A stretch of DNA of 24,272 nucleotides from a virus (IMGVR_UViG_3300022909_000108:1-24272); one strand, 5' to 3'; shown: positions 3,830-24,272, numbered from the stretch's first letter. Notes: generated from the letters alone by a model not told the origin. Numbers and translations: made by a program.

Positions 3830-3841
3830 CCATCTTTTAGG

Positions 3842-3870
3842 TTGACGCAGATCAAAATTTGTTATATACT
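3842..3870 (+). promoter_or_regulatory. Sigma70-type promoter (TTGACG-N17-TATACT)
   Basis: -35 TTGACG at 3842-3847, exactly 17-nt spacer, -10 TATACT at 3865-3870; AGGA RBS at 3884-3887 before ATG 3895. Confidence 0.7.
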
Positions 3871-3894
3871 GTACAAGTATATTAGGAATAAATT

Positions 3895-4239
3895 ATGGAT
3901 CAGCGTTTAAAAAAAGCAATTGATTTTTCTAATTATGCGGTTACTCTTAGTAACCAAAAACGCATATTAAACGAAAAATTTAAAGAAAGTTGTGTATATT
4001 ATTTTAATGGTAGTCAATTTACTATTACTCAAGAAATTATAGGATTCTGTCAAGCATTAGCACATACTACTTCAATTATATTAATTGATGACAACGGTAT
4101 TCCAGTTAAAATTGATAACTTGTTAAGTTTTACAGCAGATATTATTGAAATATACACTAACGCATCTAATGAATATTTAGATGAATATAACGAATTAAAA
4201 AAATCTAGATCAGTTGAAAAATTAATAAATTATGAGTAA
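3895..4239 (+). CDS. Hypothetical protein, possibly tail-assembly-chaperone-like
   Basis: 114-aa ORF with promoter and RBS; position between the structural genes and the enzyme cluster; no catalytic motif recognised. Confidence 0.55.
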   Translation: MDQRLKKAIDFSNYAVTLSNQKRILNEKFKESCVYYFNGSQFTITQEIIGFCQALAHTTSIILIDDNGIPVKIDNLLSFTADIIEIYTNASNEYLDEYNELKKSRSVEKLINYE

Positions 4240-5086
4240 AGGTGCAGTACTAATTGCTAAAAATAATAAGTACGTGGACTATATTAAGCAAGCAGTATTT
4301 CTTGCGCAACGTATTAAAAAATATTTAGATATTCCAACTACTATTATTACTGATAACACATCGTATCTAGTTAAAACATATGACGCAACTGTTTTTGATC
4401 AAATTATCGTGATCAAAGATACTGCATCGTCAGTTAATGAGCGATTATTCTTTGACGGCACAACTTCTAACAAAACAGCTAGCTTTCGAAATAGCAATAG
4501 GGCAATAGCATACGAGTTATCGCCGTATGATGAAACATTATTATTAGATACTGATTATATTATTTCAAATAATATTTTAAAAAATTGTTTTAAATCAAAT
4601 AATGATTTTTTAATATATAAGGATGCAAGCGATCTTGCCCAGGTTAGAGATGAACAAGAATTTAAATTTATAAGTGAGATTGGTGTAGACTTTTATTGGG
4701 CTACTGCTGTATTTTTTAGGAAAACATTATCTAATAAAATATACTTTGATCTTGTATCTCATATTGAAGAGGAATGGACACACTATCGTAGAACTTATCA
4801 GATCGAATCTTCTACATTTAGAAATGATTATGCCTTTAGTATTGCTATCCATATTATGAATGGATTTCAACAAGGAGACTTTGCTAATCCAATGCCGGGA
4901 AAAATGTGGTACACTACTGATAAAGATTTGTTAATTTCTTTAACTGATGGTAATATGACTTTTCTTGTTGAGAAAAAGAATGAATTAGGTAATTATACAG
5001 CCTTATCGTCGTCAAATCAAACAGTACATGTTATGAACAAATTTAGTCTAGGGCGCATAATCGATAAGGAATTTGCAAATGTCTAA
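4232..5086 (+). CDS. GT-A fold glycosyltransferase (GT8-like nucleotide-diphospho-sugar transferase)
   Basis: 'YELSPYDETLLLDTDYII' DxD motif, downstream 'RNDYAFSIA' and 'VHVMNK'; 8-nt overlap (ATGAGTAA) with the upstream gene. Confidence 0.75.
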   Translation: MSKGAVLIAKNNKYVDYIKQAVFLAQRIKKYLDIPTTIITDNTSYLVKTYDATVFDQIIVIKDTASSVNERLFFDGTTSNKTASFRNSNRAIAYELSPYDETLLLDTDYIISNNILKNCFKSNNDFLIYKDASDLAQVRDEQEFKFISEIGVDFYWATAVFFRKTLSNKIYFDLVSHIEEEWTHYRRTYQIESSTFRNDYAFSIAIHIMNGFQQGDFANPMPGKMWYTTDKDLLISLTDGNMTFLVEKKNELGNYTALSSSNQTVHVMNKFSLGRIIDKEFANV

Positions 5087-5906
5087 CGGATATGTAATGC
5101 TTGCGCAAAACAGCCAAGATAACTATGTATTGCAAGCATGCCTTTGTGCAATGAGTTTAAAAGTAACACAACAGTTTTCGAATGTGTCATTGATAACTAA
5201 CGATGATGTTCCCCAAGAATATCAACATTTATTTGATAAAATTATTCCTATTCCCGGAACCGACGATGCAGCCGATTCTAATTGGAAGATTGAAAATCGG
5301 TGGAAAATTTATAATGCAAGTCCGTATAACAAGACAATAGTATTAGATACAGATATGATTGTGCTTAGTGACTTAACATCGTATTGGAATTTTTTAGAAA
5401 AGTATAAAATATTTTTTACAGGCAATGTTTATAACTATCGCGGAACAATTGCTGATAATAGTTTTTACAGACAAACATTTCTTGACAATAACTTACCTAA
5501 TCTATATAGCGGGCTACATTATTTTGAAAAATCTAATTCTGCTAGTGAATTCTATTTGTGGTTAGAAGTTGTATTAACTAATTGGCAATTGTTTTATAAA
5601 TCTTTTTTAGATATTAAATCTAGACCAGTGGGTCCTAGTATTGATGTGTGTGCAGCAATAGTTGCAGTGATATTAGATATTAATATCACTAATTATAAAC
5701 CACTGTTTACCCATATGAAATTAAAAAGCCAGGGTTGGTTAAAACCTTCATCCTCTTGGCAAATACATGCAGGTTGTTACGTATCAACGGATGGAACAAT
5801 TAAGATTGGTAATTATTTACAAACGGGTATATTGCATTATACTGAAAAAGACCTGTTGACTAATACTAACATTGTTTCAATATATAAGGATATTTTAAAT
5901 GTCTAA
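5079..5906 (+). CDS. GT-A fold glycosyltransferase, paralog of 4232-5086
   Basis: 'YNASPYNKTIVLDTDMIV' DxD motif, 'FTHMK', 'LHY'. Start moved from 5073 to ATG 5079 because of the AAGGA RBS at 5066-5070 and MSNGYV aligning with MSKGAV. Confidence 0.75.
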   Translation: MSNGYVMLAQNSQDNYVLQACLCAMSLKVTQQFSNVSLITNDDVPQEYQHLFDKIIPIPGTDDAADSNWKIENRWKIYNASPYNKTIVLDTDMIVLSDLTSYWNFLEKYKIFFTGNVYNYRGTIADNSFYRQTFLDNNLPNLYSGLHYFEKSNSASEFYLWLEVVLTNWQLFYKSFLDIKSRPVGPSIDVCAAIVAVILDINITNYKPLFTHMKLKSQGWLKPSSSWQIHAGCYVSTDGTIKIGNYLQTGILHYTEKDLLTNTNIVSIYKDILNV

Positions 5907-6504
5907 TCTGCAAGAATTATTTAAAAAAATATCAAATACATCTATTAATGTTAATCAAAATACTTACGTTTACTACGATAGTTTAGGTATAATAAATAAA
6001 ATTAGTAATCGTAAATTAAATGACACTGAGTTTAATATATTAGAAATTCCTATCGACGATACTAACGATATATTATCAGGTAAAAAAAGAACAAGTGATT
6101 ATATAGTAATTAATCACCCTGAAACAAAAACTCCTATACTAACACTTGTTAGTAATGTATTAATTACACCTGATGCAACTAATAATTGTTATAATATACC
6201 CAAGAATATTTCTAATGCAAATGTTACTATTATAAAAAATTTAAAAGCAAAATGTTGGGAATTAAAACTTGATGCCGCTAGTAAATTGTTTATAGAAAGT
6301 TTAAAAGACTCAAAAAACGTATTTTATTTTAGTGTAACAAAAAAGAATGATCCTAATATACTTTATAGATCTATTGAATTTAAAAATGTATCACCGGTGC
6401 CGTTTGAATACCCGTTTGAATTTAATAACGAAGATGTAAGTATATATACGTCAAAATATTTTAATATATATTCTATGGAAATTAAAGATGCCACAATTAT
6501 TTAA
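5899..6504 (+). CDS. Hypothetical protein (very AT-rich)
   Basis: 201-aa ORF with AAGGA RBS and 8-nt overlap (ATGTCTAA) with the upstream gene; no motif recognised. Confidence 0.6.
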   Translation: MSNLQELFKKISNTSINVNQNTYVYYDSLGIINKISNRKLNDTEFNILEIPIDDTNDILSGKKRTSDYIVINHPETKTPILTLVSNVLITPDATNNCYNIPKNISNANVTIIKNLKAKCWELKLDAASKLFIESLKDSKNVFYFSVTKKNDPNILYRSIEFKNVSPVPFEYPFEFNNEDVSIYTSKYFNIYSMEIKDATII

Positions 6505-8092
6505 AGTAATCGACTGTGATATTATCTATCTAAGTTATGATGAGCCGAACGCAGAAAAAAACTATGCAGATTTGTGTACTAAAGTGCCTTGGGCAAAACG
6601 TGTACACGGTGTAGAAGGCAGTGATGCTGCACATAAGGCTTGTGCAAATCTAAGTGAAACAGATCGTTTCATTACTATTGACGGCGATAATATTGTTGAC
6701 AGAGATTTCCTTAATCAAGAAATCGAGTTTAAAGAGCATGTTGACTTGTCTACTAGTGTCATCAGTTGGTCTGCAAAAAATTCTATTAACGACCTTACAT
6801 ATGGCAACGGCGGCATCAAGTGCTGGCCTAAGCAGCATGTATTAAACATGCGTACACACGAAAATGCTGATGCTGATAATATTGCAGCACAAGTAGACTT
6901 TTGTTGGGACTTGAATTACTTACAGCAAAATGCAATATTTTCTACTATACATAACAATGCTACACCTCAACAAGCCTGGCGTGCTGGATTTCGTGAAGGG
7001 GTCAAAATGTCACTTGATCAAGGAGCCAAACCCTCCATAGAAAATTTTATAAATGGTCACAAGCGTAACCTACAACGACTATATATTTGGTTAATGGTCG
7101 GTGCAGATGTGCAAAATGGTCTTTGGGCAATACTAGGCGCAAGAGCAGGTTTATACATGACAATGTGTACAGATTGGGATTATGTACAAGTACGTGACTT
7201 TGAGTATTTAAATGATTTATGGAAAGTTTCTTTTGAGTCAATTGAAGATATTGAATATGAAATAGAAGAATACGGCAACAAACTTATACAAAAGTTACAA
7301 ATACCGATATCTTCTGTGCCATTTAATAAACAGCAAAGTGCATTTTTTAAACAAATGTACGTTCAACCTGTACGTACTACTGATATAAGCAACATTGTTA
7401 TAAAAAGTAATTATGACATATTTATGATTTCTTACAATGAATCTAACGCAGATGTAAATTACGAAAAGTTAAAAAAGAAATTTTCTCGAATTAAACGAAT
7501 AGACGGCGTTAAAGGTATTCATGCTGCACACAAAGCCGCAGCAGATGCATGCACTACACCGATGATGTGGGTAATTGACGCTGATGCAGATGTGTTAGAC
7601 ACATTTAATTTTGATTACAATGTCGATGACCACGATCGAGATTGTGTGTTTGTATGGCATAGTAAAAACCCAATCAACGATTTAGAATATGGATATGGAG
7701 GCATCAAGTTATTTCCTACTAAACTAACTCGCAGTATGGATATGTCTAAACCTGATATGACTACAAGCATTAGTACTAAATTTAAGAAGATGGAAGAAGT
7801 AGCGTGTGTTACTCGATTTAATACAGACGAATTTAGTACTTGGCGTAGTGCATTTAGAGAATGTTGCAAACTTAGTAGTAAAGTAATTGATAGGCAGAAA
7901 AATGAAGAAACAGAACATCGTTTACATGTCTGGCAGACAGTCGGGAAAGACCGTCCTTACGGAGAATGGGCTATTAAAGGCGCAGAAGCAGGGACTGCTT
8001 ACGGAACAGCAAGTCAAGGCGACATTGAAGCTCTTAAAAAAATAAATGATTTTGAATGGTTAATGGAGAAGTTTAATGAACAAGGAAACTAA
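6488..8092 (+). CDS. Glycosyltransferase-like protein with two tandem GT-A-like domains
   Basis: Duplicated motifs: SYDEPNA/SYNESNA, GSDAAHKA/GIHAAHKA, IDGD/IDAD (DxD), YGNGGIK/YGYGGIK, WRAGFRE/WRSAFRE. Confidence 0.7.
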   Translation: MPQLFKVIDCDIIYLSYDEPNAEKNYADLCTKVPWAKRVHGVEGSDAAHKACANLSETDRFITIDGDNIVDRDFLNQEIEFKEHVDLSTSVISWSAKNSINDLTYGNGGIKCWPKQHVLNMRTHENADADNIAAQVDFCWDLNYLQQNAIFSTIHNNATPQQAWRAGFREGVKMSLDQGAKPSIENFINGHKRNLQRLYIWLMVGADVQNGLWAILGARAGLYMTMCTDWDYVQVRDFEYLNDLWKVSFESIEDIEYEIEEYGNKLIQKLQIPISSVPFNKQQSAFFKQMYVQPVRTTDISNIVIKSNYDIFMISYNESNADVNYEKLKKKFSRIKRIDGVKGIHAAHKAAADACTTPMMWVIDADADVLDTFNFDYNVDDHDRDCVFVWHSKNPINDLEYGYGGIKLFPTKLTRSMDMSKPDMTTSISTKFKKMEEVACVTRFNTDEFSTWRSAFRECCKLSSKVIDRQKNEETEHRLHVWQTVGKDRPYGEWAIKGAEAGTAYGTASQGDIEALKKINDFEWLMEKFNEQGN

Positions 8093-9035
8093 CACAAATT
8101 CCATCAGTTGGCTGCATGGCTTGCAAGATTATTTTGAATTTACAAACAAACATGATATTTCTCAATTTTGTAAAAACTTTTTAAAGGTTTTATATTCTGA
8201 AAATAAAGCACCTGTACTGCGCAATGTAATACTTGAAGGTATAGAAACCAACCCTGTAGATAACGTTGTTAACTTTTTTAGTCATACTGTTAATGATGAA
8301 CAAAACATGAAACTAAAGGAAATTAGTACAGCCTTACAACTATTATATCCAAATGAAGAACTATTAAACATATTAGCAAAGTATTATAGATTGCATGATA
8401 CAAATATTGCTGATGCATTTAGTAGAGGACAAGTAAATAGCAAAACATGGATGGTTTCTGAATTAGCAAAAATTAAAGATAATTTTGAAATGATTCATAT
8501 TCATGCTGGTTGGATGGGTCAAACAAGATTATATTTAGATGCTGCAAATATTTCTTATAATAAAATGAGAATATTTGATGTTGATAGGTTTGCTTGTGAA
8601 GTGAGTGACACAATATTCAACAACGATCTTATTGAAGGATACAAAGCTAAAGCAACTGAACTAAGACTTCCTCTTAGAGACGATTCAGAGGAAGAACAAA
8701 ATATGCCTTGGGTGACTAGAACTGGTATCGAGTACGATGTACAAAATTATAACAAAGGTAATTCTTACAAAGAAAAAACAATGCCTGATTTAATTATAAA
8801 TTCTAGTGCAGAGCACATGAGCAGTGTGTGGTATCACAAAATGATTAATCGTCCTATGGAAACAGATCCTTTATTTGTAATACAAACAAACAACTTGTTT
8901 GATGTACTAGAGCATCAACTGTGTGTATATACTTTAGATCACATGCAAAAGAAGTTTCCTATGAGTAGATTAGAGTTTGCTGGAGAAAAAGAAATGTACG
9001 GATATAAAAGATTTATGATGATAGGTCGACCATGA
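8076..9035 (+). CDS. Class I SAM-dependent methyltransferase-like protein
   Basis: 'DAFSRGQVNSKTW', beta1 'IHIHAGWMG', acidic 'IFDVD' at the end of beta2, 'DLIINSSAEHM', C-terminal 'YKRFMMIG'. Confidence 0.6.
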   Translation: MNKETNTNSISWLHGLQDYFEFTNKHDISQFCKNFLKVLYSENKAPVLRNVILEGIETNPVDNVVNFFSHTVNDEQNMKLKEISTALQLLYPNEELLNILAKYYRLHDTNIADAFSRGQVNSKTWMVSELAKIKDNFEMIHIHAGWMGQTRLYLDAANISYNKMRIFDVDRFACEVSDTIFNNDLIEGYKAKATELRLPLRDDSEEEQNMPWVTRTGIEYDVQNYNKGNSYKEKTMPDLIINSSAEHMSSVWYHKMINRPMETDPLFVIQTNNLFDVLEHQLCVYTLDHMQKKFPMSRLEFAGEKEMYGYKRFMMIGRP

Positions 9036-9253
9036 ATTTAGATAATTTAAGTTTAAGAGATCTTCAAAAAGAAAGTGCTAAGGCATTAAGCACAATAGAA
9101 GCTACTAATAACAATATTTGGCAATTTAACAAACAAGCACATCACAATAGTCAAAATTGGTATAAGGCAGTTATTGAATGGTATGTAGAACAGTACGGAG
9201 ACTTGCCTAGTCGAGTAGGTCCTGGCAAAGATATAAAATTGGTATTAGAATGA
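9032..9253 (+). CDS. Small hypothetical protein
   Basis: 73-aa ORF coupled by ATGA overlaps on both sides. Confidence 0.65.
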   Translation: MNLDNLSLRDLQKESAKALSTIEATNNNIWQFNKQAHHNSQNWYKAVIEWYVEQYGDLPSRVGPGKDIKLVLE

Positions 9254-9594
9254 TTTTTAAAAATAATATTAAACTTTACTACTTTAAAGACACGCAAGAA
9301 ATTACCCTTAGTATCAAAGTAGCTGATAATTTTGTTAATTCATATAGATTTACAGAATCGCAATTTGATAAAATAATAGAAAATTGGGATAAACCTGGCG
9401 GAATTGAATTTAGAACAAATAACGGTAGTTGGATGTTCCAACATAAAAAAAGAGGACCTAGACCAGTTTGTGAGCCTGCAAATTATGTTAGAATTGATTA
9501 CTGGCGCGACGAACAAAGTTTTCATTACAGATTAAATTATGATGATATGATTAGTATTGTAAAAGATTATTTTTATCAAAAGGAAATCAAGTAA
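9250..9594 (+). CDS. Hypothetical protein
   Basis: 114-aa ORF; ATGA overlap upstream, stop directly abuts the next ATG. Confidence 0.6.
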   Translation: MIFKNNIKLYYFKDTQEITLSIKVADNFVNSYRFTESQFDKIIENWDKPGGIEFRTNNGSWMFQHKKRGPRPVCEPANYVRIDYWRDEQSFHYRLNYDDMISIVKDYFYQKEIK

Positions 9595-10677
9595 ATGTAC
9601 AATTACACAGATATTAAAGAAGTACACTTGGAAGTAACACAACGATGTCAAGCTGCATGTTCTATGTGTGATCGTAATATAAATGGTGGTGAAGATAATC
9701 CTCATATTACGAATGCAGAACTTTCATTAGAAGACTGCAAGCGCATCTTTAAGCCAGAGTTTATTGCACAATTAAAAACTATGTATATGTGTGGAAATTT
9801 AGGTGATCCGATTGTTGCTAAAGATACATTAGAAATATTCAAATACTTCCGCGAACATAATCCTAATATGTGGCTAAGTATGAATACAAACGCAGGAGCA
9901 AAAAATGTTGAATGGTGGACTGAACTGGCCCATGTCTTTGGAAGAATGGGGGCTGTTATTTTTAGTGTCGACGGTCTTCGCGATACGAATCATATTTACA
10001 GACAAGGTGTAAATTGGAACAATGTAGAACGTAGCATGAAAGCGTTTGCTAGCGCTGGCGGCAGAGCACGTTGGGATTTTTTAATATTTGAACATAATGA
10101 GCATCAAGTAGAAGAAGCAGAAGCTCTTTCAATTAAATGGGGTTTTGAAAAATTTATCAAGAAGAAAACTGGCCGATTTGTAACATCGAAAGTTAAAGCT
10201 AAAGAAACACACCAATCGGTAAATAGAAAAGGTGAACAAACTGCTGTATTATCAAAACCTAAGAAAAAAGAAAATATAAATTTGGCATTACAAAAACAAG
10301 CTGAAATTGAGAAATCTTATGGCGGTATGAAGAACTATCTTGATAAATGTAACGTTTCGTGCAAAGTAGCTAAACAAGGAAGTATTTTTATTACAGCTGA
10401 AGGATTGTTAATGCCGTGTTGTTGGACTGCTGGCCGCATGTATAAATGGTGGCACGCTGATCCTAAAATAGAACAAATATGGGATCATATAGATGTCGCT
10501 GGCGGCAAAGAAGGAATTAGTGTAATAAACAACGACATTAAAGATGTTGTCGATGGCAAATTAATATCTAGTATTACTAATAGTTGGAAACTTGATAGTG
10601 TTAAAGAGGGAAAATTAGGAGTATGTGCGCAAAAATGTGGAACCGAGTTTGATCCTTATGCTGAACAATTTAAATAA
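9595..10677 (+). CDS. Radical SAM protein with C-terminal SPASM/twitch-like domain
   Basis: CxxxCxxC = CQAACSMC; 'CGNLGDP', 'TNAG', 'FSVDG'; C-terminal 'C...FITAEGLLMPCCW...CAQKC'. Confidence 0.9.
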   Translation: MYNYTDIKEVHLEVTQRCQAACSMCDRNINGGEDNPHITNAELSLEDCKRIFKPEFIAQLKTMYMCGNLGDPIVAKDTLEIFKYFREHNPNMWLSMNTNAGAKNVEWWTELAHVFGRMGAVIFSVDGLRDTNHIYRQGVNWNNVERSMKAFASAGGRARWDFLIFEHNEHQVEEAEALSIKWGFEKFIKKKTGRFVTSKVKAKETHQSVNRKGEQTAVLSKPKKKENINLALQKQAEIEKSYGGMKNYLDKCNVSCKVAKQGSIFITAEGLLMPCCWTAGRMYKWWHADPKIEQIWDHIDVAGGKEGISVINNDIKDVVDGKLISSITNSWKLDSVKEGKLGVCAQKCGTEFDPYAEQFK

Positions 10678-10685
10678 GTAGTAGT

Positions 10686-12110
10686 ATGACAGACAATAAC
10701 CCCCCTTCAGAAACATTTTGTTTGCTACCTTGGGTGCATTTAAGCACAAGACCGGACGGTAGCATGCGAGTATGTTGTACCGCAAACGCAAGTAGCGTAG
10801 GTCCTACGAATGATCACACCCATTATGGCCAAGTTGGTGTTCTTAAAACAGAAGACGGCAAGCCTAACAACTTGAATGTAAGTGATTTTGAAACTGCCTG
10901 GAACAGCACATATATGAAAAATGTGCGTAAACAAATGCTTGCAGGAGAAAAGCCAGCTAGTTGTTTAAAATGTTACAAAGAAGAAGCAGCCGGCCATAAT
11001 AGTAAGCGTATGTGGGAAACTGCGTATTGGAGTCAGCGTGTCGATGTTGACAAATTAATTGCTGATACTAAAGAAGACGGAAGTGTTCCTCCACAGCTTG
11101 CATATATAGACTTAAGATTTGGTACTAAGTGCCAGCTTGCATGTGTGATGTGCAGTCCACACGATAGTAGCGGTTGGATCAAAGATTATAAAGCAATCTT
11201 TCCTGCTGTAGAAAATGCAAGCCTAAAAGAAACTATGCAATGGCAGGATAAAGGCAGCTATAACGGCAGTAGCTACAATTGGCACAAACAGAATCCTACA
11301 TTCTGGAAACAGTTCTATGAGCAAATGCCAAGTATGCAACAAATTTATTTTGCTGGCGGCGAAAGTCTTATTATTGAAGAACACTATGAGATTCTTGAAC
11401 ATGCTATTAAAATGGGCTATGCTAAAAACCTTGAATTGCGATACAACTCAAATGGTGTAGAATGGCGCGAAGATTTGTTTGAGTTATGGAAAGAGTTTAA
11501 GCTAGTACGCTTCCATTACAGTATAGACAGCATTGAACAAATGAATGATTATATTCGTTATCCTAGTAAGTGGACACGCCAAGCAGAAGTATTTCATATA
11601 TTAGACAAAAAAACAAGCAATAACGTAGAAGTTACTGTAGCATGTGCAGTTCAAGCACTGAATATATATTATATCCCTGATCTTATTAAATGGAAACTTG
11701 AACAAGGGTTTAAAAAGATTAACATGTGGCCATTTGGCGCCGGCGGGGTAAATTATCACTTTGTTTATCATCCGCCGCATCTTAATGTTAAGGTCCTGCC
11801 TAATGAATTCAAAGCAGCGTGTCGCAAAAAGTATGAAGAATTTTATCCATGGTGGGAAGCTAATTGGGAGAAAAGTATACCAAGCTGGCATAAAGGCAAA
11901 GTAGACTACGATACTTGGCGCAATGCAAGTTATGGTATTAAACGTCTTGAAGGCATGCTAAAATTTATGGAAAGCGAAGACTGGACTGTGCGATTGCCTG
12001 AAACAAAAGAATTTTTAGATTTATGCGATAAACAACGTGGTGTTAAGTTTGAAGAAACATTTCCAGAAATGAAAGATATATTTAAAGGATTAGAAAATGG
12101 CAGTAAATGA
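10686..12110 (+). CDS. Radical SAM protein with N-terminal twitch-like Cys cluster
   Basis: N-terminal 'FCLLPW...DGSMRVCC...CLKC' precedes CQLACVMC; 'FAGGES', 'YNSNG', 'SIDS'. Confidence 0.9.
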   Translation: MTDNNPPSETFCLLPWVHLSTRPDGSMRVCCTANASSVGPTNDHTHYGQVGVLKTEDGKPNNLNVSDFETAWNSTYMKNVRKQMLAGEKPASCLKCYKEEAAGHNSKRMWETAYWSQRVDVDKLIADTKEDGSVPPQLAYIDLRFGTKCQLACVMCSPHDSSGWIKDYKAIFPAVENASLKETMQWQDKGSYNGSSYNWHKQNPTFWKQFYEQMPSMQQIYFAGGESLIIEEHYEILEHAIKMGYAKNLELRYNSNGVEWREDLFELWKEFKLVRFHYSIDSIEQMNDYIRYPSKWTRQAEVFHILDKKTSNNVEVTVACAVQALNIYYIPDLIKWKLEQGFKKINMWPFGAGGVNYHFVYHPPHLNVKVLPNEFKAACRKKYEEFYPWWEANWEKSIPSWHKGKVDYDTWRNASYGIKRLEGMLKFMESEDWTVRLPETKEFLDLCDKQRGVKFEETFPEMKDIFKGLENGSK

Positions 12111-15724: not shown

Positions 15725-15742
15725 TTTCTCTCCGTCCAATGT

Positions 15743-15773
15743 TATTTATTAACTAAGCATATAATGATAAATA
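15743..15773. promoter_or_regulatory. Divergent pair of T4-late-type promoter boxes
   Basis: ATAAATA on the minus strand (TATTTAT at 15743-15749) and on the plus strand (15767-15773), in the 54-nt gap between divergent ATGs at 15724 and 15779. Confidence 0.65.
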
Positions 15774-15778
15774 TTTTC

Positions 15779-16990: not shown

Positions 16991-18048
16991 TGTGGCCATT
17001 AGAATCTAAAGACATAGAACAATTGCATTTCGATCTTACAAATTTTTGTAATGCAAAATGTCCCGAATGTGTAAGAGAAATTGATAGTTTATGTCGTCCG
17101 TTTTTAGATAAAGACATGCTATCTTTAGAATTGATAAAAGAAAGATTTACAAAAGAACAGCTACCAAGATTAAACGCTGTTAGATTTTGTGGTAGTTTCG
17201 GCGATCCATTAACTCATCCAAAACTATACGAAATTACACAGCATTTTATAGACGAATGGCCTGACATTAAAATTATTTGTAGTACAAACGGCGGATTAAA
17301 AAATGAAAAAGATTGGAAAAAATTAGCAGAACTATATCAAGGCAACCGCTGGATTGTATTTGGCATTGATGGCTTAGAAGATACTAACCACAAATATCGC
17401 GTAGGCGTAAATTGGAATAAACTAAATCAAAACATTAAAGCGTTTATAGATGCAGGCGGATGTGCCCATTGGCAATTTATTGTATTTCCGTGGAATGAAC
17501 ATCAAGTTTTAGATGCCCGATCATATAGTATAGATGTTGGATTTCAAAACTTTTTTATAATACAAAGTCATAGGAACGGAGCTACTGATAGCATGTATAG
17601 TAATAAAACTATCGAGTTTCAGTTTGAGATGTTAGAAAAAATTAGTAAAAAGAAATCTAAAAAATGGAACGATATAATGGGAATGCAAAAGATTAGGAAT
17701 GATCCTACTCGAAAAGCATTGCCAGAAAATACTACAACTATTGATTGTGAAGTTATTGGAAATCGCGATATTATGATTATGGCAACAGGTGCAGTATATC
17801 CGTGTTGCCACCTCGGCGCAAGAATGTTTAATAACGACAAAAAATTAAAGTTATGGTATGAGTTGGCCGGCGGCACAGATACATTTAATCTAAAAAATCA
17901 CACAATGGATGAAATTATCAAAGGTAAGTTCTTTTCGATTATACATGATAGCTGGGCAATAGCGCAAGAAAATCAACTAGGAAAATGCAGTGCCTGTATT
18001 GAAACCTGCGGTACTAAAAAACGGTTAGATAAAAAATATGTCTTGTAA
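16990..18048 (+). CDS. Radical SAM protein with C-terminal SPASM/twitch-like domain, paralog of 9595-10677
   Basis: CNAKCPEC; 'CGSFGDP', 'TNGG', 'FGIDG', 'NEHQV'; C-terminal 'GAVYPCC...CIETCG'; GAGG RBS. Confidence 0.9.
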   Translation: MWPLESKDIEQLHFDLTNFCNAKCPECVREIDSLCRPFLDKDMLSLELIKERFTKEQLPRLNAVRFCGSFGDPLTHPKLYEITQHFIDEWPDIKIICSTNGGLKNEKDWKKLAELYQGNRWIVFGIDGLEDTNHKYRVGVNWNKLNQNIKAFIDAGGCAHWQFIVFPWNEHQVLDARSYSIDVGFQNFFIIQSHRNGATDSMYSNKTIEFQFEMLEKISKKKSKKWNDIMGMQKIRNDPTRKALPENTTTIDCEVIGNRDIMIMATGAVYPCCHLGARMFNNDKKLKLWYELAGGTDTFNLKNHTMDEIIKGKFFSIIHDSWAIAQENQLGKCSACIETCGTKKRLDKKYVL

Positions 18049-18595
18049 AATATTAATAAGTGGCAATTCTAATTTTGGGTTAGCTAAAGAACTTAAAAAA
18101 ATATATATTGACGCAAATTTTGCCAGCCGGGCATCGGGCTTTGATCTTACTACAACTTCAGGTCAAGAATTATTTGCAAAATTAGCTCAACACCACGACG
18201 TAGTAGTTATTAACAGTGCCTTATGGAAATTTAATCAAACTGTGTTATTAGATACTGTTTATAAAAAACTAATTGAAGTAAAAAAACCTACAAGAATTAT
18301 TTGCGTAGGTAGCACAACTGATAGAGTAAAAAATGGAAAAGCCTGGTTATATAATGCTGAAAAAAAAGCGTTAAGAGATTATTCAAACACTTTAGCAATC
18401 AGCGGAGTGTGGAATAGTGATGCACCTAAAGTTAGTTATATTAGTTTTGGCACACTAACAAACAATCAGGAAAAACACCCTGATCGAAAATGCTTAAACA
18501 TTAGTAAAGCAGCTGAATATATTAAATGGCTAATTGATCAACCTAGCGATATTAATATTAATGAAATCAGCATAGATAGGATGCAACATGACTAA
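18038..18595 (+). CDS. Short-chain dehydrogenase/reductase (SDR)-like NAD(P)-binding protein
   Basis: N-terminal 'ILISGNSNFGLA' glycine motif, 'INSA', 'VGS', catalytic YxxxK ('YNAEK'). Confidence 0.75.
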   Translation: MSCKILISGNSNFGLAKELKKIYIDANFASRASGFDLTTTSGQELFAKLAQHHDVVVINSALWKFNQTVLLDTVYKKLIEVKKPTRIICVGSTTDRVKNGKAWLYNAEKKALRDYSNTLAISGVWNSDAPKVSYISFGTLTNNQEKHPDRKCLNISKAAEYIKWLIDQPSDININEISIDRMQHD

Positions 18596-19802
18596 TCCAT
18601 TAAAAAGTCATCCTACGTTTTGTCCTCATCTTTGGCAACATTTTAGTACAGATCCTAATGGACTAGTAAAGTTTTGCTGTGAAGCAGCTCACATGAATGA
18701 CAACGAGCTTGATTTGTCAACCTATACAATTAAAGAAATATTTAATAGTAATGCTTACAACACGATTAGAAGAAATAATCTTAGAAGAATTAAAAATCGA
18801 GAGTGTGCATCGTGTTGGAATAAAGAAGCAAAGGGCCTTAAAAGCAAGCGACAACTTGATATAGATGCAATTGACGATCCAGCAGTAGCCAACAATATGG
18901 AACGTTGGTCTAACAGCGAAGACATAGTGCCGATATATTATAATTTGCAAGTTTCAAAAACTTGTAACCAAGCATGCATAATGTGCGAACCATTCTATTC
19001 AAGTTTAATTGAATCAATATATAATCGAACCGATCCAGCTGTTGCTGAAAAGTTTAATTTTGATAGATGGAATAGAAATAGCGTTCCATTTAAAAATATT
19101 GCCAAAGTTCCAAAATTTTGGGAAGGACTTTCTGAAGTAGACAGTCAGTTAACACAGTTGTATGTTACTGGCGGAGAACCGTTTATAATAAAAGAACTTT
19201 GGACATATATTGAGTCATTAGTAACTAGAGGCTATGCAAAAAATATAAATTTTTGGTGCAACACTAACTTTAGTAAAATAACGTCTGCTCAATTAGATTT
19301 ATTGTTAGAATTTAGGTCAGTTGAATTAAATTTAAGTATAGATGCATACGGAGACACATTAGAATATTTACGCCATGCATCTAATTGGAAAACTATTAAC
19401 CAAAATATTGATCTTGCAATGCCTTATATAAAAGAAAATTTTAAGATTACAATAGTGCCGGTAATGCATGCGTTAAGTATTATAGAACTTGATCAATTAA
19501 TAATTTGGTGGAATGACAAAATGAAAGGCAAAGCATGCAAAATAAATCCTATAATTCTCACTTCACCTTTTTCTATGACATTAGATAGTTTACCTAGTAA
19601 ATATCTTGTTGGACTAAAAGAAAAAATTAACGCAGTACTTGATGAATCATCGGCAGAACATTTTTTAAATGTATTTCAGTCAATAGACAATCATTGCTTT
19701 AATTTAGAAAATAATAAACAATTAAGAAGCGAACTTGAATTTTTTAAACACGTAATGAAAAAAGATTTTCCAAACAAGTTCGATTACATATATGATATAT
19801 AG
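18588..19802 (+). CDS. Radical SAM protein with N-terminal twitch-like Cys cluster, paralog of 10686-12110
   Basis: 'FCPHLW...NGLVKFCC...CASC' then CNQACIMC; 'TGGEPF', 'NTN', 'LSIDA'. Confidence 0.9.
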   Translation: MTNPLKSHPTFCPHLWQHFSTDPNGLVKFCCEAAHMNDNELDLSTYTIKEIFNSNAYNTIRRNNLRRIKNRECASCWNKEAKGLKSKRQLDIDAIDDPAVANNMERWSNSEDIVPIYYNLQVSKTCNQACIMCEPFYSSLIESIYNRTDPAVAEKFNFDRWNRNSVPFKNIAKVPKFWEGLSEVDSQLTQLYVTGGEPFIIKELWTYIESLVTRGYAKNINFWCNTNFSKITSAQLDLLLEFRSVELNLSIDAYGDTLEYLRHASNWKTINQNIDLAMPYIKENFKITIVPVMHALSIIELDQLIIWWNDKMKGKACKINPIILTSPFSMTLDSLPSKYLVGLKEKINAVLDESSAEHFLNVFQSIDNHCFNLENNKQLRSELEFFKHVMKKDFPNKFDYIYDI

Positions 19803-19814
19803 AGAAGCAAACTT

Positions 19815-20933
19815 ATGACTGAAGATTTAAAATGGAGCAATTATGATTTTACTAAAATTCCTTTTGAGGATATTGTTAGTGTAGGCCAAAGAACTCTTCT
19901 CTACAGGGATCTATTTACTGTTAGTTGGTTGCTTGGGAGATTCTGTAACTATAAGTGTAGTTACTGTTGGCCCTATGCTAGAAGTGATCGCAAAGACCAT
20001 AGACCAACAGAACTATGTCTTCATACAATTGATGAAATAAAGAGGCAAGCTCGTGATAACGGTTTTAATAGTTTTCATTTTAGTTTATCTGGCGGTGAGC
20101 CTACTTTTCACCCTGGCTACTTGGATATTCTCAAACATCTTGCTGATGATGTTGATAATACTAATTATACTAGTGTTCACATGACATCAAACTGCTCACG
20201 CAATATGGCTTGGTTTGAGCAGTATGTGGAGGCAGTAAAGCCATTCCATCGTGCAAGTATTACAGCAAGCCTGCATACAGAACATTTAAACACTAAAGAG
20301 AAGATGCAGGACTTTGCAGACAAGCTAATCTTCTGTCAAGAGCACGATGTACAAGTTACGATTAATATGGTTATGGTTCCGGACTGGTTTGAGCGTGATT
20401 GGGAAAACGCATTGTTCTTTCACGAGCAAGGCATAAACGTCACGCTAAAGCCTCAAAGCGACCCTACAGCTAGCCGAGTAGTTGATGGGTATACAGCAGA
20501 GAACCTAAAGCGACTACACAACGGCATGCCGCAACGTGCGTACACAGAGAGCAAGCGTAAATGGGAAGGTAGACCTAAAGCAACATTCCAAGTTCCTAGA
20601 GATATTATGGGAAAAAATGATGCAAGTGTTCCTTGGCATATGCAAGTTGAGTTAAAAGACTCTAAGGGCGAAAAATGGTACATGGACCAAGCAGAACGAT
20701 TTAACGCCTTTAATTTCAACAATTTTGAAGGATGGGCTTGCAATGCCGGTTACAGTGGCATTATAATACGCGAGCCAGACGGTTCGGTAAAAAGAAGCTA
20801 TAGTTGTCACGATGCACCTCTTGGTAACATCGAAACAGGTTTTACACTGTTTAAGACACCTAAAACATGTATTACTAAGAGTTGTGTATCAAGTGCTGAT
20901 AGTAAGATACCTAAGAGAAAACATGCGCAGTAG
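19815..20933 (+). CDS. Radical SAM protein with a short C-terminal Cys cluster
   Basis: CNYKCSYC; 'LSGGEPTFHP', 'TSN', 'ASLH'; C-terminal 'CNAG...DGSVKRSYSC...C...C'. Confidence 0.9.
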   Translation: MTEDLKWSNYDFTKIPFEDIVSVGQRTLLYRDLFTVSWLLGRFCNYKCSYCWPYARSDRKDHRPTELCLHTIDEIKRQARDNGFNSFHFSLSGGEPTFHPGYLDILKHLADDVDNTNYTSVHMTSNCSRNMAWFEQYVEAVKPFHRASITASLHTEHLNTKEKMQDFADKLIFCQEHDVQVTINMVMVPDWFERDWENALFFHEQGINVTLKPQSDPTASRVVDGYTAENLKRLHNGMPQRAYTESKRKWEGRPKATFQVPRDIMGKNDASVPWHMQVELKDSKGEKWYMDQAERFNAFNFNNFEGWACNAGYSGIIIREPDGSVKRSYSCHDAPLGNIETGFTLFKTPKTCITKSCVSSADSKIPKRKHAQ

Positions 20934-21615
20934 TACACAAATAGAAAAAATTAAAAAAACACATTCTGATCCTGTGCAAATATTTAATGCATTGGACGAA
21001 ACTAAGATTAAATTTCTATTAGACTACTATCATAGTCAAGACAAAATAGAAAAAAATACAGGTCCAAAAGTAGTTTATGTAAAAGAAGGAACAGGCATAA
21101 TTGACGATATGCTTATACTGTTGCGCAAACAGTTTGGCAATTTTAAAGTTCGTGCTTGCCACTTCTTTGATGTTGATAATCCTCACGTATTGCATATAGA
21201 CGATAGTTATGATTATCCAAATAGTTACAAAGCATTTACTATACCGTTATGGGTAGAATCAGGTGATTGTAATAAAATTAAATTGGTCATGTTTGATCAA
21301 TATTATTATGGCGGCCCAGTAAAGTTTTTCAAAGGTGAAGTGTTTGAAAAAGAAGTTATCTTTTATAACAAGCATCTATACGATTATACTGATATTGAAA
21401 ATTTATCAAACACTAGTATACTTAAACCAATAAAATTACAATTACTCAGTCATTTAAAGGAAGAATGGTTAGAAGGTCTTAGTGTGCAAACATATTATCC
21501 ATGGACAATAGGATCGATAATAGCATTTGATAGTTTAAAGATACATTGCTCTAGTAACTTCAAAAAAGTAGGTATCAATCGAAAAATTGGACTAAGTATC
21601 TTTACGGAGATTTAA
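20923..21615 (+). CDS. 2OG-Fe(II) oxygenase-like protein, paralog of 12097-12993
   Basis: 'VLHIDD' (HxD), 'FTIPLW', 'FDSLKIHCS'. Start moved from 20812 to ATG 20923, giving a short overlap with the upstream stop. Confidence 0.65.
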   Translation: MRSSTQIEKIKKTHSDPVQIFNALDETKIKFLLDYYHSQDKIEKNTGPKVVYVKEGTGIIDDMLILLRKQFGNFKVRACHFFDVDNPHVLHIDDSYDYPNSYKAFTIPLWVESGDCNKIKLVMFDQYYYGGPVKFFKGEVFEKEVIFYNKHLYDYTDIENLSNTSILKPIKLQLLSHLKEEWLEGLSVQTYYPWTIGSIIAFDSLKIHCSSNFKKVGINRKIGLSIFTEI

Positions 21616-22347
21616 ATGAAGAATCATATCATTACAACTGAAGAAAAAAAGAAACTTAAAGTTAATTATCTTGAAGCGTATGAGGAAGGGATAATCACTA
21701 ATCCTAAAATAATGGATATTGCTTGTGAAATGCAATTAGACGCAATTGGAGATTTTGTTCCACTAAACTTTAAAGTAGATTTATTTCAATTTCAGCAAGA
21801 AATTAAAAAATATGAATCATCATGGGTTCCTTATTTGCATCGAGAAGGTGTACTTAATGATCGACAAGGGCTAAATTTAATAGGATTGCCTGGCGATACT
21901 CCGACTGATAGTTTATCTATGCCAGAAGCCCAACGCCGCACAGGTCGCAAATTGTCTGAATTAGATTTTGACACTCCTACTGAATTATATTATGACCTAC
22001 AGAGTATACACCCGTTGTTAAATGTTTTTCCTAAATTAGGTCGTTGTAGTTTAGTAAAGGTTAACACCGGCGGCTGGTTTCCTAAACATAGAGATGGTAT
22101 TTTATTACAACGTCAAACATTTAGAATTGTATTATTTCTTACTAATACCGGACATGCACATTATGAATGGGAACATGATCACAGAGTTAGACAAATTGAA
22201 GAAGGTCGTGCATACTATATAGATACTAGAAAAACACATAGGACGCACAGTTATGTTCATGACAGCATACATTTAGTTATGAATATACCAAAAACGTATG
22301 ATAATGTGTTGCGTGTATTAAATATATTAGATGCTGGCGAATCGTAA
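21616..22347 (+). CDS. Aspartyl/asparaginyl beta-hydroxylase-like 2OG-Fe(II) oxygenase
   Basis: 'GGWFPKHRD' (HxD) and 'IDTRKTHRTHS...IHLVMN'; GGAG RBS. Confidence 0.7.
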   Translation: MKNHIITTEEKKKLKVNYLEAYEEGIITNPKIMDIACEMQLDAIGDFVPLNFKVDLFQFQQEIKKYESSWVPYLHREGVLNDRQGLNLIGLPGDTPTDSLSMPEAQRRTGRKLSELDFDTPTELYYDLQSIHPLLNVFPKLGRCSLVKVNTGGWFPKHRDGILLQRQTFRIVLFLTNTGHAHYEWEHDHRVRQIEEGRAYYIDTRKTHRTHSYVHDSIHLVMNIPKTYDNVLRVLNILDAGES

Positions 22348-22829
22348 TGTTTAAAAAGTTAGATGTAGAATATAACAAAGAAGAACTTTTAAGTTTAGCA
22401 AATTCTTTGGAATATAATCGTGCATCTAAAGAATTAGGTAGGCAAATACCTCAAGAAATCGTACCTGCTTTTGGATTAGATCATCCGTTGATAAAAAGTA
22501 TAATCCAACAACTACCTAAAGTGCGGTTTTACAACAGCAGTTTTATTAGAACTACTCCTAATACTGTTATAGATCCGCATACTGATAGTTCTGGGTTAGA
22601 TAGTATACAGCGTACAGTTAATTTTTTATTTCCTCTTAAAAATTACAATAGTCCTTTAACAATACACAATAATGGCGAGCATGTATTTGATATTACAGGC
22701 CCTATTGCATTTAGATGTGACTTACCTCACAGTTATGAAAATCGAACAGATGATTATAGGGTAGCACTTATATTACAGGTAAAATATCCTTTTACCTTTG
22801 AACGACTAATAGTAACTAAGGCAATATAA
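22347..22829 (+). CDS. Small 2OG-Fe(II)/cupin oxygenase-like protein
   Basis: 'IDPHTD' (HxD), 'DLPHSYEN...RVAL'. Confidence 0.7.
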   Translation: MFKKLDVEYNKEELLSLANSLEYNRASKELGRQIPQEIVPAFGLDHPLIKSIIQQLPKVRFYNSSFIRTTPNTVIDPHTDSSGLDSIQRTVNFLFPLKNYNSPLTIHNNGEHVFDITGPIAFRCDLPHSYENRTDDYRVALILQVKYPFTFERLIVTKAI

Positions 22830-23410
22830 TGAAAATAGGATTTTATGGCCATTCTACTTGTGCATATCGTAGCAGCGAATCATTTATAGATTTAATTGGA
22901 ACAACGTTAGGTGCTGACATAGTTAATGTGGGTGTCCGCATGGGCTCAGAGGAACGCTCTTTATTAGACTTAAAAAAAACTAAACCTGATATTGCAGTTG
23001 TGTTTCATAGTCAAAGCAGATTAATTTATTCACCAAATAGAGATTACGATTTTGATGCAAGCAGTGATTACGGACTTCTCCCAGATGAAATTGAAATGCT
23101 CGAAACCTATAACACTTATTTTAGAGATAAAGAATTAGAACGTGCAAGGCTATATGGTGCTGCAATGCAAATAGAACAGTATTGTAATGATACAAATACG
23201 TTTGTAATTAATTGTGTTGATACTGCGCACCCATTTCCTAATTGGATTAAATTATCTAATGAAGATATTAAATGCATGACAATAGCAAAATCTAATAGAT
23301 GTGATTTTTCTCAAGGACCAAACGGCATTACAGCCAAAGGCAACGCATTAATTGCAACGCACTTGTTAAATACTATTGCGGCTCGTGACGGAGTGGTCAA
23401 ACGTGTCTGA
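22829..23410 (+). CDS. SGNH-hydrolase-like protein, probably lacking the catalytic His
   Basis: 'KIGFYGHSTC', 'NVGVRMGS', C-terminal 'PNGITAKGNALIA' where an SGNH protein would have a His; the last 11 codons (including the stop) lie within the tRNA. Confidence 0.55.
   Translation: MKIGFYGHSTCAYRSSESFIDLIGTTLGADIVNVGVRMGSEERSLLDLKKTKPDIAVVFHSQSRLIYSPNRDYDFDASSDYGLLPDEIEMLETYNTYFRDKELERARLYGAAMQIEQYCNDTNTFVINCVDTAHPFPNWIKLSNEDIKCMTIAKSNRCDFSQGPNGITAKGNALIATHLLNTIAARDGVVKRV
23367..23377 (+). promoter_or_regulatory. T4-late-type promoter immediately upstream of the tRNA
   Basis: TAAATACTATT ends one base before tRNA position 1 (G23378); matches the extended T4 late consensus as I recall it (TATAAATACTATT). 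Confidence 0.6.
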
Positions 23411-23468
23411 CTGTAAATCAGATGGTAGCAATAGCACCTACGGTGGTTCGAATCCCCCAGCCGCACCA
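23378..23468 (+). tRNA. tRNA-Tyr (GUA), bacterial class II type, with atypical acceptor and T stems
   Basis: Acceptor GCGGCT/AGCCGC, D-stem ACG/CGT with GG in the loop, anticodon stem TCTGA/TCAGA with loop CTGTAAA (GTA at 23413-23415), long variable arm, GGTTCGAATCC T-arm, discriminator A and encoded CCA (23466-23468). Confidence 0.85.
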
Positions 23469-24170
23469 TTTTTTTCTGCATACACAGACATCGGCTGGAA
23501 AGAAGAGTATCAATCTTTATGTAGTGACTTGCAGCATTCTGGTAAAAATGAACTTTATTATTATGCTATTCCTAATATTCTACAAAAGCGTTTAAATCTT
23601 CCTAGTAATACTAGATTGTCATTTGTTGACATACCAAAACCTGTAGAATCAATTTGGCATAGAGATACTAGGGGAGAATGGGTAATTAATGTATATATAG
23701 AGCCAGGAAACGGAAAAACTGAATTTAGGACAGGAAACTTTACATCAGAAAAAAATCAATCTTGGTGTATAAATGTATCTGAAGAGCACAGGGTTTGTAC
23801 GCCAAATCCTAGACAATTTATACAGATAGAATTAGAACAAACTTGGCAATGGCCAGATACTAAATTGTTATGGCAGGAATGGTTAAAACAAAAACACAAT
23901 AATAGTTTAATTAATGATAGGGCCTGGCTGCATTTGCATCATTCTGAGTACGTAAGTCAACTTACAAGAACAGTAGACTGGCATCAAGCACCTGGAATAT
24001 GGGGACTTGTTATAGTACCTATTAAAGGACATACAATAATAGAGTATAAAGATGCTATTATAAATATTAACAAACCTACATTAGTGCAAACTAATATTTT
24101 ACATAAATGGATTCCTGGGACCGAAGATAATGTTTTTTGGGCATATAAAATAAAATGTATTACACGATAG
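23403..24170 (+). CDS. 2OG-Fe(II)/cupin oxygenase-like protein with two tandem domains; start uncertain, probably GTG 23403 inside the tRNA
   Basis: 'IWHRD...INVSEEHRV' in domain 1 and 'DWHQA...QTNILHKW' in domain 2. The frame has no ATG at all; GGAG (23390-23393) lies 9 nt before GTG 23403. Confidence 0.6.
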   Translation: MSDCKSDGSNSTYGGSNPPAAPFFSAYTDIGWKEEYQSLCSDLQHSGKNELYYYAIPNILQKRLNLPSNTRLSFVDIPKPVESIWHRDTRGEWVINVYIEPGNGKTEFRTGNFTSEKNQSWCINVSEEHRVCTPNPRQFIQIELEQTWQWPDTKLLWQEWLKQKHNNSLINDRAWLHLHHSEYVSQLTRTVDWHQAPGIWGLVIVPIKGHTIIEYKDAIININKPTLVQTNILHKWIPGTEDNVFWAYKIKCITR

Positions 24171-24272
24171 ATTACCCAAAATTTTTAGAGTTGCAACAAA
24201 GTTTAATACCTATAGTGTTAAACGCAAAAATTAATGTACATGCGTACAACGGTCCATATACAGACGAAGTTC
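24155..24272 (+). CDS. N-terminus of a hypothetical protein running off the window
   Basis: ATG 24155 opens MYYTIDYPKFLELQQSLIPIVLNAKINVHAYNGPYTDEV with no stop before the window end; overlaps the upstream stop as other genes here do. Confidence 0.5.
   Translation, partial: MYYTIDYPKFLELQQSLIPIVLNAKINVHAYNGPYTDEV

Follow-up and report, generated by a model that had tools for sequence, protein, structure and literature searches.

In large aquatic phages, fibre genes often have islands of glycosyltransferase (GT) genes as neighbours, to which the literature assigns O-chain, DNA-protection or metabolite roles without test. The host recognition cluster of pelagimyophages is a GT-rich locus in which radical SAM cassettes are gained and lost, and it is read as a locus for O-chain modification (PMC7029224). 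Jumbo cyanophages carry clusters of genes for GTs, epimerases, 2-oxoglutarate (2OG) oxygenases, carbamoyltransferase, halogenase and methyltransferases, which are similar in enzyme mix to the locus described here and for which the accessible parts of the reports describe no fixed structural acceptor (PMC7824862, PMC12801897); the terms "radical SAM" and "rSAM" are absent from the main text of PMC7824862 as available, and the S-SCSM2R cluster has one such gene. Mycobacteriophage virions are glycosylated by phage-encoded GTs, as shown by mass spectrometry (Freeman et al. 2023, cited through PMC12619734), and four core GT orthogroups are described there for the moraphages, which are large aquatic phages. 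In the present study, a viral DNA stretch of 24,272 nucleotides (IMGVR_UViG_3300022909_000108:1-24272, hereafter the window), which is an entire contig and is identical to two other IMG/VR contigs, was analysed. From position 3895 to the contig end, it carries an island of 24 tightly packed genes, with 19 of the 23 junctions overlapping by longest-ORF (open reading frame) coordinates, and an identical contig extends the island at least 9 kb past the window end. A first-pass annotation had described a tightly coupled pathway of about 20 kb; the coupling held, and the single pathway gave way to a conserved core with a lineage-specific tail. The island is real, widespread and uncharacterised, and it comprises three tiers, namely a fixed phage core (tier A), a pathway core common to bacteria (tier B) and a swappable tail (tier C). 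Our literature search retrieved no paper describing this composition, PMC7029224 being the nearest; clusters with a similar general make-up had been described (PMC7029224, PMC7824862) but are uncharacterised, in line with the earlier statement that no characterised pathway of this kind is known.

Like the present island, the host recognition cluster is hypervariable and lies among the structural genes of T4-like phages from water, behind giant VrlC-type and fibre genes, with GT8 as the commonest GT type (PMC7029224). This layout was observed in a 335-kb relative (G004:C57, locus L086), where a gp6 baseplate wedge gene, a gene for 5265 aa that is probably of VrlC type, and tailA paralogues are followed by the island. 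Since the Gp23 capsid and gp6 wedge genes are located on the same contig, the window phage is a T4-like jumbo myophage. The host recognition cluster is described for SAR11 and cyanobacterial phages, is non-syntenic and is bounded downstream by the neck gene gp14 (PMC7029224), whereas the GT core is here strictly conserved and tied to one structural-type gene. In G002, PanD and an Mtd_N fibre gene form the end of the island, and the genes beyond them are non-structural. In addition, N-twitch radical SAM genes dominate here, part of the system is chromosomal in Bdellovibrionota, and the clade is related to the Ralstonia phage RsoM2USA, the sole cultured phage with GT1 or GT3 among 50,697 records. 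The four GT domains of the island might belong to the same families as the four moraphage orthogroups, the two sets having been compared by description; DnaK, the moraphage marker in PMC12619734, was not found on the contig of the 335-kb relative. In mycobacteriophages and PBCV-1 (PDB 2p6w/2p72/2p73), virus-encoded soluble GT-A enzymes glycosylate the structural proteins of the virus in the cytoplasm, and soluble GTs linked to structural genes, as in virus-encoded virion glycosylation, are also found here. Those systems were established by mass spectrometry, whereas the present one is known from genes alone; no sequence similarity connects them, and their structures overlap only where the nucleotide is bound (template modelling (TM) scores 0.23-0.33). 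With respect to GtrABC-type serotype conversion, no flippase or polytopic GT-C family match was obtained, and by simple hydropathy 1 of 402 phage island ORFs has at least three hydrophobic segments, apart from a distal desaturase. To our knowledge, radical SAM tailoring is not known in mycobacteriophage or PBCV-1 virion glycosylation.

Several findings carry our interpretation. First, the front of the island is fixed in phages. Synteny was compared in the best 80 of 224 viral stretches by GT3 similarity, reduced to 39 after near-copy removal. Upstream of GT3, in loci long enough, GT2 was present in 36 of 36, and GT1, a 114-aa gene and a strB/strC-type gene each in 34 of 34; tailA was present in 27 of the 30 loci long enough, and in 32 of 34 non-redundant loci the 114-aa gene directly follows a gene of the strB/strC type. 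Thus, the linkage to fibre genes in relatives, which the first-pass annotation had set as a check, was borne out by a front core fixed behind strB/strC. RsoM2USA has the same gene order at 33-46% identity; its two GT3 domains are separated by one N-twitch gene and followed by a methyltransferase (MTase)-like gene. In locus L066, a 2OG oxygenase gene and a DUF6065 gene lie between strB/strC and the 114-aa gene.

The structural-type genes are tailA (355..1833), strB (1843..2766) and strC (2825..3829); these and all features below are on the plus strand unless stated otherwise. tailA encodes a tail-fibre or virion structural protein (phrog_19602 tail fibre, E 2e-20; phrog_14394 virion structural, E 4e-10) with homologues in Atu_ph07, Phosso and GAP32-like phages. 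strB and its paralogue strC (36% identity) are the candidate acceptors. The strB protein is predicted to have a helical N-domain and a jelly-roll C-domain (AlphaFold2, AF2, pLDDT 91.8); against VIA structures, the best Z was 6.5, to lectin-, carbohydrate-binding-module (CBM)- and tailspike-like beta-sandwiches at generic Z only, no PDB structure was retrieved by Foldseek at E 0.001 (TM not above 0.21), the viral library returned unnamed phage proteins only, and the Atlas held no named match. The strB homologue of RsoM2USA, ORF355, is encoded downstream of the tube and sheath genes and opens with a tailA-type N-terminal domain, the best hint that strB and strC might be particle parts. The adjacent proteins had been described as Ser/Thr-rich tail proteins; tail-fibre family matches were indeed obtained, for 355-1833 only, and the Ser/Thr content is a modest 16% in tailA, 16% in strB and 21% in strC. 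Longer strC proteins, of 745-2065 aa and with a Ser/Thr content of 27-30%, were seen in three clusters of relatives. Long Ser/Thr/Pro-rich, Ig-like-looking extensions without Pfam or PHROG match were seen in the strC homologues L076:1083-7280, L066:208-5256 and L011:5001-7238. No sequon-like conserved motif was found in strB/strC, where only scattered Ser/Thr, Tyr and Asn columns are conserved. A complex prediction for strB and the 114-aa protein, run with no controls, scored 0.00 and was used neither for nor against any reading.

Tier A consists of the 114-aa gene (3895..4239), GT1 (4232..5086), GT2 (5079..5906) and a 201-aa gene (5899..6504). Window proteins were scanned against Pfam, PHROG and NCBIfam. 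GT1 is a predicted GT8/glycogenin-like GT-A glycosyltransferase from a large family (761 clusters at 50% identity match at E 1e-10). In an alignment of 128 sequences with 31-48% identity, D106, D108, R197, D199, H266 and K270 are invariant; D106, D108, D199, H266 and K270 supply the DxD and the later Asp, His and Lys that we take to be the retaining GT-A pattern. All 18 rows of the GT1 profile against PDB were glycogenin, with a best E of 0.014. GT8 family PF01501 was not matched above its cut-off: GT1 had no match, none of the 128 GT1 homologues matched at E 0.05, and GT2, a predicted GT8-like paralogue that clusters with GT1, reached E 0.0045 (17.0 against a cut-off of 24.3 bits). The 201-aa gene has matches in 74 loci and no Pfam, PHROG or NCBIfam family. 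Some phages have a repeated insert of about 200 aa in the 201-aa gene, and others have the same insert in GT2 (L090:8670-10004, L071:7688-9121); this sharing suggests that the two proteins work together. By eye, and without a Pfam match, we take the insert to resemble small CBMs. The 114-aa protein is possibly a DUF4376-like adaptor or chaperone, a lead given by the nearest named Atlas cluster (DUF4376, 0.88, under the bar); its PDB match to SDHTT3 (E 0.0015) was disregarded, being judged a matter of unrelated composition. Profile-profile comparison revealed no relation between GT3a and GT1, the 114-aa and 201-aa proteins, strB and the 201-aa protein, or the MTase-like protein and GT3, and PDB sequence searches with the GT1 (38 rows), strB, 114-aa, MTase-like and GT3 profiles and with the short-chain dehydrogenase/reductase (SDR) yielded nothing meaningful.

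Second, the genes that follow include a putative sugar-pathway core (GT3, the MTase-like gene, rS1, rS2, rS6 and the SDR). GT3 (6488..8092) has two fused GT-A-fold domains (AF2 pLDDT 93), which are separate genes in most relatives, and is predicted to be a glycosyl- or nucleotidyltransferase. Foldseek rows for its first domain, GT3a, at E<=0.001 were ThuS/SunS and the PBCV-1 capsid GT (TM 0.23-0.33), and the VIA comparison gave Z 10.6 to B4GALNT1 (root-mean-square deviation 3.1, 141 aligned), 10.4 to STIV A197 and 9.3 to MobA; D65 and D67 of the DxD motif are invariant. The glycosyltransferases announced by the first-pass annotation thus amount to three genes with four DxD domains. The MTase-like gene (8076..9035) has class I motifs, a conserved GW, D170 and NxSxEH, and orthologues in the bacterial loci, and gave no Pfam or PDB match even as a 19-sequence alignment. 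It is followed by rS1 (9595..10677), a radical SAM gene with C-terminal twitch-type cysteines (PF04055 E 5e-8; bacterial orthologues 44-47%), and rS2 (10686..12110), an N-twitch member of NF033640 (418 vs 170 bits; bacterial orthologues 58-61%) in which 13 of 13 listed strain differences fall at third codon positions. Further on are rS3 (15764..16990), a divergent N-twitch gene that just misses NF033640 (162 vs 170 bits), rS4 (16990..18048) with a C-terminal SPASM/twitch region (PF04055 E 9e-13; PF13186 E 7e-5), a short SDR-like gene (18038..18595), rS5 (18588..19802), again of NF033640 (259 vs 170 bits), and the MoaA/viperin-like rS6 (19815..20933; PF04055 E 2e-14), whose viperin/MoaA NCBIfam matches are weak. 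The six radical SAM genes counted earlier were confirmed, each with one CxxxCxxC and a PF04055 match, four over the cut-off and two under. In NF033640, the twitch half-domain is N-terminal, PF13186 covering residues 12-97 in rS2 and 12-77 in rS5, with the CxxxCxxC at 149 and 126, respectively. In 27 of 33 loci, GT3 is followed by an N-twitch gene at a distance of no more than 3.5 kb. The present analysis puts NF033640 (N_Twi_rSAM), a family for which we know of no assigned reaction, into a context of sugar transfer. Two bacterial loci contain homologues of the SDR-like gene (E 2.5e-33 and 2.8e-11), one of which has an adh_short match under the cut-off (E 3.5e-5); the gene itself gave no direct match.

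Third, much of this pathway core is also present in bacterial chromosomes. One metagenome-assembled genome (MAG) of Bdellovibrionales carries strB-114-GT1-GT2-201-GT3 and five radical SAM genes beside pheT, without tailA, on a contig that also bears ribosomal and other housekeeping genes. The proposal that the whole core is general in Bdellovibrio-type bacteria was rejected, as GT1 was found in 1 of 238 genomes of that Bdellovibrionota class. NF033640 scores over its cut-off in 125 of the 238, GT3 was found in 13, and rS6 orthologues (61-70%) in 10, all within the 13; five of these ten look closely related, so the independent cases are fewer. Seven further loci combine rS1, rS2 and rS6 with GT3, usually an MTase-like gene and sometimes an SDR, together with GT2-family genes, FAD oxidoreductases, QueC-like genes, a B12 radical SAM gene and UDP-glucose dehydrogenase. 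PMT_2 (GT-C) genes occur in two bacterial loci, and one locus follows a polysaccharide locus. By simple hydropathy, a protein with at least three hydrophobic segments is encoded in six of the eight bacterial loci; the locus with tier A has no such protein, but it is cut by the contig end. In the rS2 tree (5 vs 10 rows) and in the rS1 tree (14 vs 8), phage sequences were separated from bacterial ones with 100/100 support, and the rS6 tree was not resolved. Recent transfer between phage and bacteria is therefore unsupported. On these sequence data, tier B is considered an old shared pathway, for which tier A and GT-C might be alternative transfer modules serving one sugar pathway. The N-twitch genes of this class often stand in arrays (at least seven scored matches per genome in many), near GT2-family, GT-C, ABC-2 transporter, DegT and carbamoyltransferase genes. 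The contig of the 335-kb phage sits in a Neomarinimicrobiota MAG bin (twice, as C57 and C77), and several further bacterial MAG matches resemble phage contigs. Matches in bacterial genome bins are probably mostly mis-binned phage contigs, the 335-kb case having been checked through Gp23.

Fourth, the rear of the island is exchanged between strains. Most of the remaining tail genes have homologues in few relatives only. In the same slots, relatives carry UDP-glucose dehydrogenase (seven loci), epimerases, RmlC, DegT aminotransferase, hexapeptide acetyltransferase and carbamoyltransferase, and also tryptophan halogenase, AMP-binding, TauD, PhyH, ATP-grasp and PanD proteins, as seen in a scan of 56 + 30 chosen proteins, about half of which had no match. 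The sugar-nucleotide enzymes support glycan chemistry, and the other slot enzymes indicate that the island may have more than a single product.

Fifth, the island has its own promoter. A sigma-70-type site, TTGACG-17-TATACT (3842..3870), opens it ahead of the 114-aa gene. The comparison covered 34 of 37 non-redundant 114-aa genes, three with uncertain starts being left out, and a site with at least 10 of 12 consensus letters was found within 90 bases in 29 of 34, with the late-type motif ATAAATA in 0 of 34. The late motif precedes 25 of 68 tailA and 18 of 45 strB/C genes, where the sigma-70 score was reached in 4 of 68 and 8 of 45. The window-wide scan showed no excess of such sites (95 vs 98.7 expected), and therefore only the conservation of the 3842-3870 site counts. 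A strong sigma-70-like site within 90 bases upstream of GT3 genes in 19 of 46 hints at a second, internal promoter. Reading the island as part of a late operon was rejected on the absence of the late motif; the island is a separate unit, probably expressed earlier than the fibre genes. Given this promoter, co-transcription no longer argues for a virion target, nor does it exclude one. Contigs from RNA libraries of four salt-marsh runs covered 24-29 of 30 bins of 1-20000, with gaps in some runs (e.g. 5337-6670).

Herein, we propose a "virion glycan editing hypothesis" to describe the island: a glycan edited by radical SAM enzymes would be made in the cytoplasm and transferred to virion proteins of the strB/strC type. 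We give this proposal about an even chance of being correct. The acceptor is likely cytoplasmic, because the phage copies are nearly without membrane proteins. First, the island enzymes would be made from the host-type sigma-70 promoter before the late fibre proteins. Second, GT3a, the second GT3 domain (GT3b), the MTase-like protein, rS1, rS2, rS6 and the SDR would activate, edit and methylate a nucleotide- or protein-linked sugar. Third, the 114-aa protein, GT1, GT2 and the 201-aa protein would prime and extend the glycan on Ser/Thr/Tyr of strB/strC, and this phage-specific core would replace the membrane GT-C-type transfer of some bacterial copies. Finally, the additional N-twitch radical SAM enzymes, Fe/2OG oxygenases, acyl enzymes of the SGNH-like and GNAT types and B12 radical SAM enzymes would diversify the decoration between strains, with relatives adding NDP-sugar enzymes, in a manner reminiscent of O-antigen variation; other substrates are possible for part of the tail genes. 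More tentatively, and with clearly less confidence than the proposal itself, we suggest that radical chemistry provides a widespread clade of jumbo phages from water and soil with a dedicated, strain-variable glycan coat, made through an ancient N-twitch sugar pathway shared with predatory Bdellovibrionota, which is plugged into a soluble glycogenin-like protein-priming module in the phage and a membrane GT-C module in the bacterium. This wider suggestion, if true, would give the N-twitch family its first function and reveal new sugars on virion surface fibres. The proposal itself, if right, would reveal self-glycosylation in jumbo myophages and attach a chemistry to a large radical SAM family that is so far uncharacterised. 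It is testable with five to ten genes, since the island has a minimal core that is conserved, a candidate acceptor that can be named, and orthologues in bacteria that use another transfer module.

The glycan decoration on the virion predicted by the first-pass annotation divides accordingly into two parts. Glycan chemistry is well supported, because of the strB/strC linkage, the nucleotide-sugar enzymes in relatives and the bacterial glycosylation context; the virion acceptor is what we infer. Several observations weigh against the hypothesis. No modified product has been seen. Gene content and order, the promoter, solubility as judged by hydropathy and the bacterial context are observations, from which all reactions, the acceptor and its position in the particle are deduced. 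strB has neither a named family nor a significant solved match, so that its place in the particle is presumed, and ORF355 is not among the ten virion bands identified for RsoM2USA in the available part of PMC8504454. In the window, Ser/Thr make up only 16% of strB and 21% of strC. The loci were picked by GT3 similarity, and their synteny thus partly reflects shared descent. On the enzyme side, the glycogenin match of GT1 is no better than E 0.014, GT3a is in a near-tie with nucleotidyltransferases (MobA Z 9.3 vs 10.6), and PMT_2 was matched in just two of the eight bacterial loci. The desaturase, the QueC-like gene and the PanD and halogenase of relatives are not needed for a glycan. The absence of the fibre-gene late motif ahead of the island is just as compatible with an early role directed at the host or at DNA, and the salt-marsh RNA-library cover may include DNA carry-over.

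Of the alternatives, the one that survives best, which we still regard as unlikely, is remodelling of the host surface from inside (lipopolysaccharide (LPS) core or O-chain, or lipid A) with the result that superinfection or grazing would be blocked. A role of this kind has been proposed for islands of pelagimyophages and cyanophages and is argued for GT8-rich islands in PMC7029224. The host-type promoter agrees with such a role, as do the GT8 character of the enzymes, which is typical of LPS core synthesis, the position of the bacterial orthologues amid cell-envelope glycosylation genes, the weak OlsC/LpxO matches of ox2 and the membrane desaturase of the distal part. However, 401 of the 402 phage island ORFs are without a flippase, GT-C or other polytopic transfer protein, the tie to strB/strC is strict even in the bacterial copy, and the same core is found in a soil Ralstonia phage and in aquatic phages, whose hosts would hardly share a surface glycan.

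It is also conceivable, at a lower level of plausibility, that the front core (114-GT1-GT2-201-GT3) glycosylates a structural protein by itself and that the other enzymes form a loose array with unrelated substrates such as protein side chains, lipids and cofactors. Most tail genes have no homologue outside the identical contigs, three genes run in the reverse direction, the array is broken by a tRNA, relatives carry desaturase, PanD, halogenase, TauD and AMP-binding genes, and orthologues of rS1, rS2 and rS6 were not found in two RsoM2USA stretches. Set against this independence is the joint travel of GT3, rS1, rS2, rS6, the MTase-like gene and the SDR between phages and bacterial chromosomes, together with the closeness of an N-twitch gene to GT3, which it follows at no more than 3.5 kb in 27 of 33 loci; in RsoM2USA, such a gene stands between the GT3 domains.

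Slightly less probable again is that the product is a free metabolite (a peptide, an aminocyclitol or a glycosylated nucleoside) directed against defence systems or competitors. All of the enzymes are soluble, rS6 weakly matches viperin and MoaA, the top Foldseek rows of GT3a are glycocin peptide transferases with a conserved 73-aa gene in the core, and relatives hold an ATP-grasp ligase, PanD, halogenase, carbamoyltransferase and B12 radical SAM enzymes; this option has been raised for cyanophage clusters (PMC7824862). The stretches examined, however, contain no exporter or scaffold synthase, the link to a structural-type gene is fixed, and the 73-aa gene was not found in bacterial loci.

Hypermodification of phage DNA or tRNA is the least probable reading and a remote one: phage GT-A enzymes, radical SAM enzymes and 2OG oxygenases are known as DNA modifiers, and the early-type promoter and the QueC-like gene and tRNA in the array are compatible with it, but the island sits in the structural region, its bacterial orthologues lie amid envelope genes, FolE and QueE are encoded away from the island in the 335-kb relative, at a locus of their own, and no TET/JBP, thymidylate-synthase-like/hydroxymethylase or nucleotide-kinase family match was obtained in the window or distal scans, which divergent members could escape.

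The remaining genes of the window are as follows. The contig starts inside a tailA paralogue, whose 3' end (3..314) belongs to a 626-aa protein in an identical contig (L151:7242-9122; PHROG virion structural, E 5e-12). Between the MTase-like gene and rS1 are the 73-aa gene (9032..9253), strongly conserved in phage relatives (63-89%), and a 114-aa orphan (9250..9594) matched in identical contigs only. Six genes had been called Fe/2OG oxygenases, and the HxD motif was found in all six; Pfam family PF05118 matched two, one of them just under the cut-off, three others are connected by weak chains of homology and one by motif. The ox1 candidate (12097..12993) has no Pfam match and is homologous to ox3 (E 8e-4). 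The AspH-family ox2 (13720..14430, minus strand; PF05118 E 1.5e-20) has OlsC/LpxO matches far under the NCBIfam cut-offs. The ox3 candidate (20923..21615) has its start set with the homologue L096:5538, ox4 (21616..22347) has a bacterial-locus homologue (E 2e-15) that also matches ox2, the AspH-like candidate ox5 (22347..22829) reaches PF05118 at E 3e-4 (21.0 vs 22.6 bits), and ox6 (23376..24170), a cupin-type candidate by HxD only with its frame open through a tRNA, gave no family match and is matched in an identical contig only. The minus-strand genes, three in number and spanning 12983-15724, include SGNH-like gene 1 (12983..13723, ATG start at 13723) and an orphan of about 460 aa (14345..15724) with no family and a match in an identical contig only, in addition to ox2. 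SGNH-like gene 2 (22829..23410) runs at its 3' end into the tRNA; both SGNH-like genes rest on the motif, with no relevant Pfam match. Taken together, the earlier MTase, SDR and SGNH labels are backed by motifs or a bacterial homologue and not by direct Pfam matches.

The tRNA gene, an atypical tRNA-Tyr(GUA) (23378..23468), has a 6-bp acceptor stem and a T-stem mismatch and is absent from five related stretches scanned. It overlaps the end of the preceding gene, and TAAATA occurs at 23367. This gene, the minus-strand genes, the continuation past the contig end and the promoter of the island had been missed by the first-pass annotation. The distal part past the window encodes a GNAT protein, two B12-type radical SAM proteins (one with a B12-binding match), two more AspH matches, a membrane fatty-acid desaturase and a PP-loop-like (QueC-like) protein. 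The distal gene set of G001:C1:1-9400 (L093) was also observed in G002 and G004. PanD (aspartate decarboxylase) and the adjoining Mtd_N fibre gene mark the far end of the island at L096:16589-16939 and L097:2562-2903. The 335-kb relative carries, at L150:3301-10949, FolE and QueE-like genes and a nearby unnamed 498-aa gene, a candidate deazaguanine DNA-modification locus. Finally, RsoM2USA has, downstream of its island (195-210 kb; L082:1-15056), about 20 hypothetical genes of similar size, near 200 aa, with a shared terminal motif.

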